A DNA stretch of 24,002 nucleotides from a virus: UHGV virus genome UHGV-0067928, one strand, 5' to 3'. The translations under genes and the position numbers were made by a program. Position 1 is the first letter of the stretch. Each line of letters begins with the position of its first letter. Positions 1,405 through 9,134 of this stretch are shown here, in pieces. Under the pieces are notes generated by a model. That model saw only the letters and a program-made list of their open reading frames with translations, was not told the origin of the DNA and made no database searches.

Positions 1405-3879
1405 CTACATTGCCATTAATATAAACATAGCCAATTCGTCATAACGAATTCCGTAGCGTCCACCTGCTTTTTTTACAAGAATCATATTTCCTGTTTTATA
1501 TTGAGAATAAATTTTCTCACCTGTATCAGGATCTGTGCTCTCTTCAGTTATCACCTCTTCATCCCATACGTCTGGCCATTCATCGTAACACCAAAAAGCA
1601 TATTGCTCAGGATTTAAACCATGCTTTCTAAGAATATCTCCTACGGTTTGAGCACCAACTCCAAAATGATACCTTGATAACTCCAATCCTTTAAAATTAA
1701 TCGACTCATTAAACCTGAACTTGCATATAATTCCCTTTATTTCCAGCGCAGCATCACGCTCTGCCTGAGTAATGTCATATATTGTTTTAAGTGTTTCATC
1801 TGATGTGCTTATAGTCCCGGATGCAGAATAAATCTGAGCCCATCTAAATGATGGTGCACCAAGAGATTTGCTGTTATCAATAATTGGTGAAAAATTACCT
1901 TTAATGGCAATATTTCCAGAGTCGCCGAATATATTAATAACTGCAGAGTCATCACCATGGTTTTTTACGCTTAAGTTTCTTGATGAAATATTTATATCTT
2001 TGTTATATCCACTAACATAAATCCATCTTTTACCATCAATGTGATGCCCGGAAATATTTCCGTTTGATTGTTCGTCAGGTGACTCTCTAAGAACAATAGC
2101 ATCTACTCCAGACGACCATTGTATTTTTGTATCTGTAGGCCTCCAGTTCTTTATAATGAACGAACCATCAGTAAACTCCGTTTTTATTTGTCTATTGTCT
2201 ACAAATGCGTCTCTTGGTTTAAACTCACTTGTGTTAACGCTGCTCTGAAGATCAGAAGCAAAAAATCTAAGATTTCCTGTATAACCCTGAGTCTCGGTCA
2301 GGTTATACGCAATCATAATTCCATTTTCAAACTCAGATGATGTTATTTTAACATCACGGCAATCACCAAAAATGCAATTTCCTTTATCAAATGTTGTTTG
2401 AGCTTTGAATTTATCAAACCTTAAATTACGAACAGGGAAACCATCAACCTCTAATGCAAAGGATGCAGGAAGGCCAAAGTATTCTGATGGCTTACCTGAT
2501 GTATGATCAAGAGTAGTGGCTACTGTATTCTCAAAAACAGTCCCGCTAAAATTATTACCAATTGACGGAAACCTGATTACACTTATTGTACCTTGTATTT
2601 CAGGAGAAATACCAGATAGTGTGATGTTAGTTCCATCAAATGATGCATCTGAATACGTATATACTGATTCACTGCCAGCAATTTTAAACTGTTTAACTGA
2701 AGTTATTCTCATCGACTTTTTATGTTTAAATGTCACTGAGCTTTCAGTATTACTTACAAGATCAATCTGAGGGCTATTCCTTATCGCGATTCCTGACTGG
2801 ACATAAACGTTATTAAAGTGCGTTTTTTCAGGATTTCCCTTCATTGAAAGGCTCCCGTCATTTTCTGTCAGTAGTAGTCCTTTTACCCTCCAATAGCCGA
2901 CAATCTGTACGTTATCAATAACTGAATCACAGCTATCGTATACATGCAACCCTATATCCCAGTTATCACCCAATGAATAAGAATCAGGGTTATTGTATCC
3001 TTCAATACCATTTTTACTTACCATTATTCTCAGATTGCGTAACTGTGATGCCCTGTTGATACTAACAGCTACGCTCATGGCTTTTGGTGTAGCAGGAGTA
3101 ACACCTACAGAATCTTCATTCGTAAACTCAGTGAACTTACAAGATATCCCTTCAACAATTTTAGCTGGTCTTTCATTAGAGATGTTAAAAAAATATTTGT
3201 TTTTTTCTCCATCACCAGTAAATACAAGATGGGTTCCTTTACTCCAACTTTTTAATAATCTTTCAGGCGCTGGTCTATATGTGTCCCAATAATCAATGCC
3301 AGATCCAACCAGTGAACACCCCTCAGGAATGTTAATATTCTTCTTGATGATGCATATTCCTTCAGGAATTGTTATAACCGACCTTCCAGAGTTTAAAGCT
3401 TTAATAAAAGCATCTGAATCATCTGTTACCCCATCTATTTTTGCTCCCCACCCTCTAACATCTCCACAATCTCTCCATCGTGCCATCTGCAACTCAGGAT
3501 ATTTTTTAGCGCCATCTGGATCTTCTAATTGCTGCCGTAGCTGATCGGGGTCATACTTCAGCACATTAGGAAAATAGAACTGCTGCGCACCATACGCATC
3601 GTATACAGCCATAGAATGGCCTTGCACAGTTACGAACTTGGCAATCTGTCCGTTATATACCGGATATCCAGCAGCGTTAATGATGATTGGCTGCGAAACA
3701 GGAACGTGAGAACCGTCTTCATTCTCCACATAAACCTGAATCTGGTTTTCAGGATTTACTGGGTCAGTGTCAATTTTACCGATATAAATTTTGCCATTGG
3801 CTACGGCTTTAAAAGAACGAGCCATAGTGAAGAGTTGAGAAGGCATGCTCACTACAACATTGGCTGTAATGTCTGTCAT
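1405..3879 (-). CDS. Tailspike protein: P22-type head-binding N-domain, beta-helix receptor-binding/depolymerase body, C-terminal S74-like autochaperone domain
   Basis: N-terminus [11 protein letters not shown]...[12 protein letters not shown]...VLKYDPDQ closely follows the P22 gp9 head-binding domain. Repetitive beta-helix-like middle. C-terminal ~130 aa begin [11 protein letters not shown], resembling the intramolecular-chaperone (peptidase S74) domain of endosialidase-type tail fibres. SD GGAG lies 8 nt upstream of the ATG. Confidence 0.9.
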
Positions 3880-4057: not shown

Positions 4058-4981
4058 TCAGTAGTTATGTACTGAAGGAGGTAATTCTTTATTCTTAAGT
4101 CTCATCCATGCGGAAATATTCGTTGGTCCGTCTGGCTCATTGATATCAACATCTCGTGTGTGATTGATTAAAACGTCTCTCGCCATTCCGATAACATACG
4201 AGAATTCATGACCGTAGTCGTAGCATCTGCCGGAATAGTTCGATTGAATTTGTTTTAATGCCGGATACAGTTCGCGGAATAATGCCTGTGAGCGGTTGGC
4301 ATAATCCCATAGCCATACAAGGCTGTTTGCTTCTTTTGCAGAAAGCTCGTTGGTTTTCTTCTCTTGTTTGCCAATGAACTCACCTTCAAGCGGAACTCGA
4401 GCTGCAAGTGACAGTGCTTCGGTAAACTGCTCCTCACTGATTTCTTTGTATGAACATCCAAAATGGGATTTCAGTGACGACCACATGGTGATCATCGCCT
4501 TAGCCTGTTTTTCCTTTGGCAGAGACTGACCGCGACTCATGACGAGTTGTTTAATGGCTTCCTGCTGTTCAGTGGTGATTTTACCCGGCAACGCCTTTTT
4601 AGCTTTGCGTGGGTTAACTACATGACCTTTAGTCCAGTACTCATAGAGCACATCGTCACACTCTTCCTGATACTGGATTACCTTGTCGCGGATTTCAGGG
4701 CGGACTTTGTTAGGGCTGATGGTTTGCAACCAGCCATTCAGTTTACGTAAAGCAAGGCAAATCATGGTCTGCACACCGCCAACTGAAGGTATTGCGATTT
4801 CCACAATACCTTTAGCAAATCTTTGTTTTAACTTTGTAAACTGTGAAGCCCAATCCATACCCATTCCCTCAACGATAGGTTTCATTGGGGTATACGGTTC
4901 GCCGTTGTGATTGACAACATAAAGCTCTGCGCCGTGGAATGGTACATTGATAGTAGATACTGCTGTTGCTATACTTTTCAT
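4058..4981 (-). CDS. ant: Antirepressor Ant
   Basis: 307 aa. The N-terminal region (MKPIVEGMG...[24 protein letters not shown]...[15 protein letters not shown]) matches the AntA/P22 Ant family; it sits downstream of arc as in P22 immI. Confidence 0.8.
4947..4975 (+). promoter_or_regulatory. Putative Psar promoter (antisense to ant)
   Basis: -35 TTGATA (4947-4952), 17-bp spacer, -10 TATACT (4970-4975), located within the first codons of ant on the opposite strand. Confidence 0.45.
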
Positions 4982-5054
4982 GTCGTTAATTCCTATGCGT
5001 GGTTTTACGATACCGAAGCCCTGACTGTTCCAGCAGTTGGGGCTTCAACTTTTT
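4982..5054 (+). ncRNA. sar: Sar-like small antisense RNA covering the ant ribosome-binding site
   Basis: About 70 nt from the predicted start after Psar to the hairpin GAAGCCC...GGGCTTC (5015-5046) plus TTTTT (5050-5054). Complementary to the ant start/RBS and arc 3' end, the same architecture as P22 sar. Confidence 0.4.
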
Positions 5055-5185
5055 AGGCTGCGAATAAGACGCTGCACTATTTCTGAATTTAAAGACCTGC
5101 CCTCCTCCTTAGCCTTTTCCTTCAATTTTTCTTTAATCTCTGGCGGGATACGAATCCCTAATGGAGCGATGTCTCTAACTTTCAT
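5045..5185 (-). CDS. arc: Arc-like ribbon-helix-helix repressor
   Basis: MKVRDIAPLGIRIPPEIKEKLKEKAKEEGRSLNSEIVQRLIRSLKS (46 aa) shows the Arc/MetJ pattern (GRS-NSEI). The ATG at 5185 is preceded by GAGGTG; the longer ORF-track start at 5245 has no RBS. Confidence 0.75.
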   Translation of the reverse strand: MKVRDIAPLGIRIPPEIKEKLKEKAKEEGRSLNSEIVQRLIRSLKS

Positions 5186-5199
5186 TTCCACCTCACTTG

Positions 5200-5283
5200 C
5201 TACACCGTGACAACTAAATACTACACCGTGTTTATTTAAAGTCAAAAATTTTTTGCCTACACTGTGTAGCTACGCACAGTGTG
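5200..5283. promoter_or_regulatory. Divergent arc/ant and mnt promoter-operator region
   Basis: Direct repeats CTACACCGTG at 5200-5209 and 5221-5230; palindrome CTACAC-T-GTGTAG (5257-5269) inside the longer inverted repeat ACACTGTG...CACAGTGT (5259-5282). Candidate minus-strand promoter: -35 TTGACT (5240-5245), -10 TAGTAT (5218-5223). Confidence 0.5.
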
Positions 5284-5294
5284 CAGGAGGAGAA

Positions 5295-5546
5295 ATGAAA
5301 GGTGCAAGAGATATCAGTCCATTGGGGATTAGGATTCCAGACTATTTAAAGAAACGCATTCAGCAAGAAGCGGATAAAAACGGCAGATCAATGAACTCAG
5401 AGATTGTGCTTATCCTTCAAAAACATGTTGATAATCTTGATGGCTCTCGCTCACTTGAAGGATTCGCTAACCAAGAAGCTGATAAATTCAAAGAGGCGCT
5501 GCTTGAGACGCTGAGGAACATGCAAGAAAACAAAAAACCCACCTGA
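5295..5546 (+). CDS. mnt: Mnt-like ribbon-helix-helix repressor
   Basis: MKGARDISPLGIRIPDYLKKRIQQEADKNGRSMNSEIV... (83 aa) has an RHH N-domain and C-terminal helix like P22 Mnt. SD AGGAGG lies 5 nt upstream of the ATG at 5295, divergent from arc. Confidence 0.75.
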   Translation: MKGARDISPLGIRIPDYLKKRIQQEADKNGRSMNSEIVLILQKHVDNLDGSRSLEGFANQEADKFKEALLETLRNMQENKKPT

Positions 5547-5559
5547 AGGTGGGTTTAGT
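5538..5559 (-). terminator. Intrinsic terminator of the two-gene operon (convergent with the mnt 3' end)
   Basis: Minus strand: ACCCACC-TTCA-GGTGGGT followed by TTTTTGT, immediately after the TAA of the 149-aa gene. The stem overlaps the last codons of mnt. Confidence 0.6.
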
Positions 5560-6004
5560 CAAACATAGTGTTTCTAAAGTCTCTCGCATACCCTGCTAAC
5601 ACTCTCATTCTATTATGATTGTTAGCAGACATGTGAGCTACAGGATGAAAAAGAGCAATCAATGAATACCTGTTCTCATCAAAAAGATTTTGTGCATAAA
5701 CGAGAGCGGTATTGGATGTTTTATGCCACTGCAACTTTTGCGGTGTGCTGATATCTGTGCCATTTTTTATTGGCTCAAATTTATTTTCACCAATTGCTAA
5801 ATGAAGGTGCATAAGACCTGCATCTTCAATATCAGGAGGCCGATGATAAGAGGTGTCTCTGCCAAAATAGCTGGGCAACGTTCCCGTAGACTTGTAGATG
5901 ATAAAATCATCTACAAGTGTTTGTTTTAAATCAGGAAACTCAACAAAAACCGGGGAGAAAAAATAGTCAAAACTATCCTGATTATATTCCACGGTTACTT
6001 GCAT
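5555..6004 (-). CDS. Hypothetical protein, 149 aa; candidate toxin/effector of a two-gene module
   Basis: SD GAGG 7 nt upstream; start lies 8 nt after the stop of the upstream gene. No confident domain; a faint recalled resemblance to YafO-family toxins (FGRD, HLHL segments) is unverified. Confidence 0.6.
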   Translation of the reverse strand: MQVTVEYNQDSFDYFFSPVFVEFPDLKQTLVDDFIIYKSTGTLPSYFGRDTSYHRPPDIEDAGLMHLHLAIGENKFEPIKNGTDISTPQKLQWHKTSNTALVYAQNLFDENRYSLIALFHPVAHMSANNHNRMRVLAGYARDFRNTMFD

Positions 6005-6012
6005 GTTTTACC

Positions 6013-6579
6013 TCAGTGGAAGTTACCAGAGTGAAACACACGAGTCCCGTGCTCAGCAAGCGCACACAAACCAGCCATATCTACGGAACTATCAAAAACA
6101 ACCGGAACACATGAGCGTTGTTTAATAAGACTATTCAGGTTAGTTACGGCAGATCTAGCATCAGCAACAACGATATAGATATCTCTTGCGATCTCTTTAA
6201 AATCAGCAGAAGCTTCTTTGAATACCGATTTCATTGCCCCTTCAAGTCCTCTCAATTGATGCTCTATCAATCGAGACTTTTCTGGTTCAATGATAGACAA
6301 CACATTGTCTACATTCTCATCGGTAGCGTTTGCAAGAACACGATAAGCGTATTTCAGCATTCGAGACAATTCTTTAATCGAAGACACCGCCTCATGAAGC
6401 TCATTATTAGCCCGTTCACTGCTGAATGAGGATTGATGGTAAGCGTGCTGAACGTTATCAGTAACAACCACCTCACAACTGAACGCAGAAGCTTGCTGTA
6501 ATAGCAAACCTATTGCGACTCCAGCTTTGGCAGCGTTCAAGCTAAACATTTCATCAATCCCATTAGTCTCATTGCTCAT
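6013..6579 (-). CDS. Hypothetical protein, 188 aa; first gene of the two-gene module
   Basis: The ATG at 6579 is preceded by AAGGAGG with a 5-nt spacer; the ORF-track start at 6609 is less likely. Predicted helical, no recognisable motif. Confidence 0.6.
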   Translation of the reverse strand: MSNETNGIDEMFSLNAAKAGVAIGLLLQQASAFSCEVVVTDNVQHAYHQSSFSSERANNELHEAVSSIKELSRMLKYAYRVLANATDENVDNVLSIIEPEKSRLIEHQLRGLEGAMKSVFKEASADFKEIARDIYIVVADARSAVTNLNSLIKQRSCVPVVFDSSVDMAGLCALAEHGTRVFHSGNFH

Positions 6580-6646
6580 ACAAACCTCCTTCTTATCGGA
6601 GATTATCAATAGCTATGTATCCATTGAATACACGCTATGCGCAGTA

Positions 6647-6675: not shown

Positions 6676-6750
6676 CCACCGTTCTATCACCAGTAGATGA
6701 TGCCTCTCCATACATCATCTGGTATCCTGCTCAAAACTAAGGAGGTTGGT

Positions 6751-7101
6751 GTGAATGCTCAGTCTGTCATCATGGTTTTCCTTGGGCTGATTGTCGCAAA
6801 ACTATATCCAGACTGGTGGAAAGGGGCATTAGCTACTGTCGCCATCTATTTGCTTTTATCCATCGTTAAGCGATCACTCGCTGAGACCGTAAATCAAGCA
6901 AAACGTTTCTCATTTAAGAGTTTAATAAACTATGTTACTGGGCTTATTTTTTGCCTTTCAATTCTGATCGCTTCGGCTTTTTTGCCCGTATCAATAGCTA
7001 ATTTTTTTGGCGCACCATATGAGGTAGGTTATCTATTCTCTGTTTCCTGTCTTGCCATTGCTCTTCTTTACCTTTGGACGAGATCAAAGAATAAAAATTA
7101 G
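6751..7101 (+). CDS. Small integral membrane protein (about 4 TM helices); candidate superinfection-exclusion or immunity protein
   Basis: The GTG at 6751 is preceded by AAGGAGG; the upstream ATGs at 6697/6700 lack an RBS. Four hydrophobic segments. Transcribed divergently from the two-gene operon, opposite to the late genes. Confidence 0.55.
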   Translation: MNAQSVIMVFLGLIVAKLYPDWWKGALATVAIYLLLSIVKRSLAETVNQAKRFSFKSLINYVTGLIFCLSILIASAFLPVSIANFFGAPYEVGYLFSVSCLAIALLYLWTRSKNKN

Positions 7102-7130: not shown

Positions 7131-9134
7131 TTTTTGTGATGCCTGTGCGACTCTGGTGAGCGATTGTGTGACCGTACTGATCGCTCTGTCATATGCTGTG
7201 CTACCTTTTGGCGTATTTGCCAGACGTAACAAGGCATTTCGTATAACAGGGCTTTCGTATGCCTTCGCTGCTCCTCCTACGACACCAGCAGCAGGAACAA
7301 CAAACGCAGCCGTTTTTAGCATCCCCGCTAATACTGCTGCGTTTATGATGCCACCACCAACTAACAATCCATAAAGCTGCTGACCATTTAAGTTTTGAAC
7401 GTTCGCTTTTGCCGCGTGTCTTGTATCGTTGAGGTATTTAATAACGCCGTCCAGTTCCTTTCCATGTACGCCTTTAAAGAAAGTTGCTGATTGCTTCCTG
7501 TTCCGGTGTAACGCATTAATAAACTTTTCAACACTAATATTTCCAGACGGATCAGTCGCCTTATCTACAGCATTCTGAACTATGGCTGCTCGTGCGTTTT
7601 GCCTACCATTGTCATCCAGAAGCCTGTAAAGCTGAGAACGTTCTGATGGGTTTTGGCTAAAAACGAGTTTTGTTACATCCTCAGGTGTAGCCTTGCCGCT
7701 GGCTATTGCCTTTTGAACGCGCGTTCTTCCCATCATGTCATTGAATCTAGCCCATGAGCGATCAACCCTAGACATATTGGCAGCTTCTTCTGAGCCTAGT
7801 TTTTGGGATACTGCTTTTTTCATATCCGCTGTATATGCCTTGTAGACAATATCGCTGGCTTTCTGGAGCGTATCTTTATCAACAGTGTCAGATGACGCCA
7901 TAAATCGCTTTCGAAGATCGGTTCTGTTTTCCCTCGCCAGACGCAGGTCATTTGGTCCGCTGGTGATATCGTCTTTAAATTGCTGCAAGACTTTTACCGC
8001 GGCTCTATCCTGAGATTTGCCCGGGCGGCTTAACACGGCAATCTGATTGTCGATAGCTTTTACCGTGTTTGAGAGATCGACAGGGGTATCCCCCATAGCG
8101 TCAATTATGCGGTTATATCGCTTTCCTGCTGCCTCAATGAATTTTTGCTGCCCTTTAGTCGCAGACTCATAAAGCTGTTTATCTGAAATTCCCCCCAGAC
8201 CATCGCTAAATGTTCTGACTAAATTTTCTCGTGCTTGTTGTTGATTCAGTCGGTTCTTACCGGTTCCAAAAAAAGGAACTCTTTCGCCTAATGTTTGGGC
8301 CTGCCCCTGCATAAAGGTTTTATCTTTCAGCGTGTCACTGGTCATTAACGGCAGGTTTCTTTCCGACGCAAAATCGACAGCAGCCTTTGCTTCCGGTGAC
8401 ATCTCACCGCGAACAGCCCTGGAAACCGCACTAACTGTATTTTCCAGCCCCTTGCCAACACCACCAATGCCAGCAGAAATTACCGTTTGTGCAGGATCAA
8501 TATCTTCTCCTCCAGCAAGACTGGTGCCACCCTGTAGTGCTAAATCTGTAGCAGCTGATTTCCCTATGGCACCAAGCACCGTTCCAGCCCTGCCCGCTGG
8601 TGTGAACGCTAACGCATTAGCAAGAAACGAAGTCAGGTCTTGCGGTGATAAACCTGGCTTGTTCAGGGCATAATCACCGGATGGCAGGGAAACGATAGTG
8701 TTACCCTTCTCATCCTGCCTTAATTTCGCCCCCATACTCTGAAGAATCTTTTCCTGAGACGCCTCGGAGCCGAAAAGTTGAGACCATCCAGCCTTCAGGG
8801 CATCCATGCTTAGTGAGTTCAACTCAGGGGCAGCCCCAACATTTTGCAGTCTCTCCATTTCTGGTGTCATTCGGCTTTCACCGGTAACGGCATCGCGCAT
8901 TGCAGCACCTAAAACAGCCCCTTGCTCAGCAGAGCGATCTAGTCCTTCCTTCTGCTGAGTGGCAAGCTGTGTATATCCTGATGCAAGTGAGTTGTCTGCT
9001 GGCGATTGCTGAACACCTTGTTGTGTTGGCGCTGACTGACCAGCAAAATACTCATCAATGGCGGTGCCAATATCTTCCGTGCTCGTACCATCAGGGAAGG
9101 TAAATGTCTTACCGTTTGCAGTTACTTTCATCAT
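7119..9134 (-). CDS. Ejection (E) protein, P22 gp16-like
   Basis: 671-aa ORF in the gp16 position, last gene of the 14-7-20-16 block. Start ATG overlaps the gp20 stop (ATGA). Confidence 0.7.

Follow-up and report, generated by a model that had tools for sequence, protein, structure and literature searches.

The window analysed here, a stretch of 24,002 nucleotides from the virus genome UHGV-0067928, carries an immI (immunity I) region in which two repressor-like genes accompany the gene for an antirepressor. The last of these, ant (4058-4981, minus strand), is the target gene of the element described below and encodes a 307-aa protein matching the Pfam families P22_AR_N (E 8.5e-45) and P22_AR_C (E 5.7e-30); its ATG occupies 4981-4979 and is preceded, 9 nt upstream, by the Shine-Dalgarno (SD) sequence AGGA at 4994-4991. 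On the same strand lies an arc-like repressor gene (5045-5185), whose 46-aa product is, going by its Pfam match (Arc, PF03869, E 5e-13), an Arc-family ribbon-helix-helix protein. An mnt-like repressor gene (5295-5546, plus strand), encoding 83 aa with an Arc-like domain (PF03869, E 5.7e-8), diverges from arc-ant and completes the module, its order and orientation being those of P22 and epsilon34.

The immI region is placed between DNA-transfer genes and the tailspike gene, a late-operon setting that is P22-like, and on its sequence the window belongs to the P22-like phages of the genus Lederbergvirus, resembling Sf6, HK620, and CUS-3 in kind, and is an E. coli prophage. Matches to the best phage records extend over only about half of the window, at approximately 95% identity. 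The tailspike ORF encodes 824 aa at 1405-3879 on the minus strand, with an N-terminus that we take to be the P22-type head-binding sequence. Adjoining immI is an “ant moron” comprising ORFs at 5555-6004 (minus), 6013-6609 (minus), and 6697-7101 (plus), which encodes a protein with a YafO-family type II toxin domain (PF13957, E 3e-22); its two other ORFs, of 198 aa and 134 aa, gave no Pfam match, and no obvious antitoxin was assigned among the moron ORFs.

Between arc and mnt, the intergenic region (5186-5295) contains CTACACCGTG twice, at 5200 and 5221 with a 21-bp spacing, together with a third, related copy, CTACACTGTG, at 5257 and overlapping palindromes at 5254-5285. The repeats surround the minus-strand sequence TTGACT-16-TAGTAT (5245-5218), which is, by its position, a candidate Pant for arc-ant and is overlapped by the CTACACCGTG words. 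These intergenic repeats are probably Arc/Mnt operators lying over Pant and Pmnt.

Opposite ant codons 3-12, on the plus strand and hence antisense to ant, lies a promoter sequence, Psar (4947-4975), with a -35 element TTGATA at 4947-4952, a 17-nt spacer, and a -10 element TATACT at 4970-4975. An earlier note on this DNA had placed a TTGATA-17-TATACT promoter within the first ant codons on the opposite strand, and the sequence is indeed found there, with hexamers agreeing with the consensus at 10 of 12 positions and a TGc closing the spacer as an extended -10. Lying within the 5′ part of ant and convergent with the candidate Pant, Psar would provide the element with a promoter of its own, predicted to start beside the ant start codon. 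Convergent transcription from Pant may influence Psar. Taken alone, the promoter match is no better than chance could produce in a window this long: TTGACA-N14-TGnTATAAT, with at most two mismatches, matches once where 0.25 matches are expected per window, and at least one match appears in 20 of 100 shuffles.

The RNA predicted to follow from this promoter is about 69-73 nt long and spans 4982-5054 on the plus strand, as judged from an Rfam match, its fold, and the promoter geometry, and it would be antisense to the arc-ant intercistronic region of immI (mnt, arc, ant). For the 5′ end, the prediction is G4982 or U4983, 7-8 nt past the -10 and just outside the ant start codon, and for the 3′ end a position inside the U run at 5050-5054, both ends being derived from the geometry of the promoter and the length of 68/69 nt published for the P22 RNA (PMC12197685). 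The 73-nt plus-strand RNA folds with -28.4 kcal/mol (z = -5.0 against shuffles), and its minimum free energy (MFE) structure agrees with the Rfam structure. In both structures, stem-loop I (4983-5010) pairs UCGU(U)AA with UUACGA, leaving one U·U mismatch or bulge, and its apical part holds UCCU (4991-4994), complementary to the AGGA of the ant SD. Stem-loop II (5015-5046) is a 14-bp hairpin with the loop UCCA, three of its pairs being G·U wobbles on the plus strand; separated from it by AAC, a tract of five U residues (5050-5054) can be read directly from the sequence. The modelled fold thus presents two stem-loops, the first bearing the anti-SD and the second being a predicted intrinsic terminator.

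A hairpin and U run overlapping the arc stop codon had likewise been proposed, and the coordinates bear this out, as the arc TGA (5047-5045) falls within the last two pairs, or foot, of stem II. Among the 104 loci in which an arc-like ORF was found, the arc stop lies in the stem foot in 51 and, in the P22-like arrangement, 4 nt past the stem in 41. A 49-aa plus-strand ORF running across the element (4907-5056) was ruled out as a gene, since it is made up of the ant start read in antisense and of the RNA.

Rfam assigns this RNA to a family that has been characterised since 1987 and is curated there. The sar RNA model, RF00262, matches 4983-5050 over model positions 1-68 of 68 at 81.2 bits (E 7e-16), against a gathering score of 43 bits, and sar is the sole Rfam family reaching its gathering threshold in the 24-kb window. 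Matches to ctRNA_pGA1 (29.8 bits, gathering score 45) and sn3060 were rejected as reflecting merely a generic hairpin and U tract. The proposal that a sar-like antisense RNA runs across the start of ant is therefore strengthened to that of a full-length member of RF00262, and the P22 sar geometry claimed for it is likewise recovered, with the element at the position of sar and Psar in epsilon34, between a P22-family ant and arc. The earlier note had added that no ORF track would show such a gene, which is true of ORF tracks, but a routine Rfam scan finds it immediately.

One might still suppose that promoter-like hexamers and a GC-rich hairpin came to adjoin each other by chance, and the expected frequency of the promoter match given above would allow it for that part of the element. 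The covariance-model E value and the recurrence of the arrangement leave this account practically no probability: the combination of promoter and RNA is found again in more than 120 phage contigs, and the sar element matches in 302 of 5426 complete E. coli genomes. The covariance score, the structural covariation, and the fixed position of the promoter already refute it, and the composite of promoter, RNA, and terminator is far beyond chance. We therefore read 4947-5054 as sar, the antisense RNA gene of immI, here in a P22-like E. coli prophage, with a probability of roughly 93%.

The position of the promoter was assessed in 124 loci picked by the stem II word only, without reference to the -10 element. 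In 121 of them, a spacing of exactly 3 nt separates the end of TGnTAnnnT from the complement of the ant start codon, and the N-terminal codons of ant vary among the 124. The -10 in the window aligns with the Psar -10 of both P22 and epsilon34.

These loci come from two pattern scans of viral contigs, one using the -10/start word and the other the stem II word, which together yielded about 165 loci. When 22 distinct variants were aligned with MAFFT, blind to structure, 96.4% of cells in the two helices proved to be paired and eight pairs changed on both sides; sliding the register by 1-3 columns leaves only 36-47% paired, and none of 500 shuffles reaches the observed pairing, although such shuffle statistics overstate independence because many of the aligned sequences are close relatives. 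The covariance model that we built from this alignment recovers 39 sar loci at 54-84 bits. Aligned with it, 38 distinct sequences, many of them closely related and all fitted to the model, have 97.2% of cells paired, with compensatory changes in 11 of 19 pairs (55 cells). Both helices contribute, with changes on both sides in four of the five pairs of stem I (95% of cells paired) and in seven of the 14 pairs of stem II (98%). Given the relatedness of the sequences and the model-fitted alignment, we put more weight on the slid-register controls and on how many kinds of pair occur than on the shuffle counts.

The strand on which this structure is selected bears on a further explanation, namely that the selected structure resides in the sense arc-ant mRNA, as a processing or translational-coupling hairpin on the minus strand, and that the plus-strand promoter is fortuitous. 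The minus strand does form two hairpins as well (-20.2 kcal/mol, z = -2.6); the target of an antisense RNA always has the mirror image of its regulator's structure. The plus strand, however, folds better by 8 kcal/mol, and the minus strand scores only 16.5 bits with the Rfam sar model and has no U tract after its hairpin. Three stem II positions that are G·U in most variants on the plus strand become A·C mismatches on the minus strand, so that the G·U pairs favour folding of the plus strand, and the position of the promoter is conserved. We regard a purely sense-strand structure as very improbable and retain the plus-strand sar RNA. What the sequence analysis establishes is membership of the sar family, by the covariance model, together with the gene context, the covarying structure, the strand bias, and the conservation of the promoter position.

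Several relatives recovered with our model lie beyond the reach of the curated one. Seven divergent variants (L007, L012, L035, L044, L050, L093, and L118) keep both helices and score 54-67 bits with our model, and RF00262 at its gathering score misses all seven. In a sensitive Rfam rescan of three of them, L093 reached 41.3 bits against the required 43, and L007 and L035 gave no match at E 0.01. These results suggest that RF00262 is narrower than the real sar family and that the model could be broadened. One contig, L152, contains two sar-like elements, at 5814-5885 (minus) and 8366-8434 (plus), the second of which scores 42 bits and has a TGCTACAAT -10 adjoining CAC, the complement of a possible GTG start, and its own terminator hairpin; this arrangement suggests that L152 has two antirepressor loci, with a separate antisense RNA for each.

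Seven other contigs (L005, L018, L046, L032, L037, L048, and L091) in which TGCTATACTNTTCATG is present and the sar stem II is absent were considered as carriers of analogous antisense RNAs and rejected. The neighbouring ORFs inspected in L005, L032, L037, L048, and L091 do not resemble ant/arc pairs, and our sar model finds no match in L005, L018, L046, L032, L037, and L091. The occurrences of TGCTATACTNTTCATG in these non-sar contigs are put down to chance agreement with an M-[KN]-S-I-A N-terminus.

Among sequenced relatives, phage CUS-3 (CP000711) is 99.5% identical over promoter and RNA, and a prophage of E. coli W4 (NZ_CP163132) carries an element that is 100% identical; both share the ant allele of the window, whereas the arc-side flank of CUS-3 is another module. 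No RNA is annotated at sar in the CUS-3 and RefSeq E. coli W4 records inspected, and none of the other E. coli matches listed has an RNA feature beneath it. As a known RNA family in a known context, scoring nearly twice the family threshold, the present copy is not a discovery and has little discovery value; its practical use lies in annotation, as identical sequence goes unannotated in the CUS-3 and W4 records.

The change of flank seen in CUS-3 is part of a wider pattern. On the ant side, the window matches CUS-3 over 4860-5052 (99.5%), and on the arc side it matches PhiR12 phages over 4966-5350 (92.5%); what the ant-side and arc-side matches have in common is exactly the Psar -10 plus sar, 4966-5052. 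The window-type stem-loop I is common, with 21 occurrences among the sampled loci, and other contigs join it to five or more different arc-side flanks, while each stem-loop I type is paired with many arc-side flanks elsewhere. These sequence comparisons point clearly to the sar gene (4966-5052) as a mosaic junction of immI.

Such a junction could also be taken as the main role of the 87-bp block 4966-5052, which would then be a recombination linker joining interchangeable modules of ant and arc, its uniformity maintained by frequent exchange and its promoter-and-hairpin appearance without an RNA function in this phage. The CUS-3 record, where the sar spot is labelled only “bsq2; boundary sequence,” speaks for this, as do the exact overlap of the ant-side and arc-side matches on sar and the recurrence of the window-type stem-loop I on several arc-side flanks. 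Yet divergent variants retain both helices through compensatory changes, the retained G·U pairs work on the plus strand only, and the -10 element is held at a fixed distance. The kept structure, the strand bias, and the promoter are constraints of an expressed structured RNA rather than of a homology patch, and a linker devoid of RNA function seems to us improbable. The two roles are compatible, the linker adding to the RNA function without replacing it, and the mosaic around sar is a clear illustration of how phage modules can recombine with the gene of a conserved regulatory RNA as their joint.

In the otherwise invariant 3′ half of sar, the most variable positions are two bases of loop II (5029-5032), which reads UCCC in 47, UCCA in 19, UACC in 13, and UACA in 12 of 91 promoter-anchored loci. 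This variation may be neutral, as drift in a loop that does not pair, or it may determine specificity. Extending the latter, sar could be both the exchange joint of immI and a determinant of specificity, with stem-loop I and loop II types setting cross-repression groups, a proposal that we consider speculative and rather unlikely. The groups would be defined by the stem-loop I types (that of the window, that of P22, and a third common type) and by the variable loop II bases (UCCC, UCCA, UACC, and UACA), while the invariant block of stem II and -10 would let ant and arc modules recombine freely, and the near-consensus -35 of the present allele would make its Psar stronger than that of P22. If true, sar groups would or would not cross-repress the ant mRNA of co-resident or superinfecting P22-like phages, an RNA-level heteroimmunity comparable to that of the P1/P7 c4 RNAs.

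Returning to the sar reading, we propose that a sigma-70 promoter embedded opposite the first ant codons would drive a transcript of about 70 nt, running from the base just outside the ant start codon to an intrinsic terminator of its own, with a foot that overlaps the stop codon of arc. With these boundaries, and being encoded opposite its target, the RNA would have perfect complementarity to the entire arc-ant intercistronic region, in which the ant SD would face the apical part of stem-loop I. Pairing with the arc-ant mRNA would then occlude the ribosome-binding site (RBS) and limit antirepressor synthesis. The targeted mRNA could originate from Pant or from late-operon read-through passing through immI towards the tailspike gene; the latter is suggested by one paper on a P22-like phage, in which arc and ant are described as being transcribed from the late promoter as well (PMC12111858).

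That the present phage produces the RNA, with these exact ends, and represses Ant translation with it is carried over by homology from P22, the only phage for which the effect is known (PMC12197685, PMC7968456). There, sar was described by Liao et al. 1987, Wu et al. 1987, and Schaefer and McClure 1997, according to the passages of PMC2629481 and PMC12197685 that cite them, and it is a 68/69-nt RNA that pairs with the ant mRNA at the RBS and blocks Ant synthesis (PMC12197685, PMC7968456, PMC10732415), acting on the initiation of Ant translation (PMC12197685, PMC7968456, PMC10732415, PMC12111858). It has also been detected in P22 infection by the sequencing of small RNAs (PMC13397905).

The classic P22 immI record aligns with the window at the sar element too, and in both phages the element lies between arc and ant in immI, in the same orientation, with a -10 (TGCTATACT) within ant codons 3-4 and a start just outside the ant ATG. 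Both RNAs have two hairpins with the anti-SD in the apical portion of hairpin I, and stem II and the linker ACC are identical, the loop excepted, which is UCCA here and UACC in P22. Stem-loop I differs (UCGUUAA...UUACGA here, UUGGU...ACUGA in P22), the helix being held by compensatory pairs, and the anti-SD is UCCU instead of the CUCC of P22 because the ant RBS differs. The ant gene is 6 nt shorter here relative to P22, which brings a near-consensus -35, TTGATA, to 17 nt, where P22 has GTGTTA. The U tail counts five U residues here and three in P22, and the arc stop is inside the stem foot here and 4 nt beyond the stem in P22. All of these differences are minor. In epsilon34, “sar, small antisense regulatory RNA” and “Psar” are annotated at the homologous positions.

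Beyond the sar family, the Rfam scan of the window at gathering threshold, which returned sar only, found no match to the c4 RNA of P1 and P7 or the CA RNA of N15. These two resemble sar in being small structured RNAs that limit antirepressor production, and c4, like sar, pairs at or near the ant ribosome-binding site; however, they belong to unrelated families and are encoded differently, c4 being processed from a longer transcript and having its target downstream in the same operon (PMC12197685, PMC10732415).
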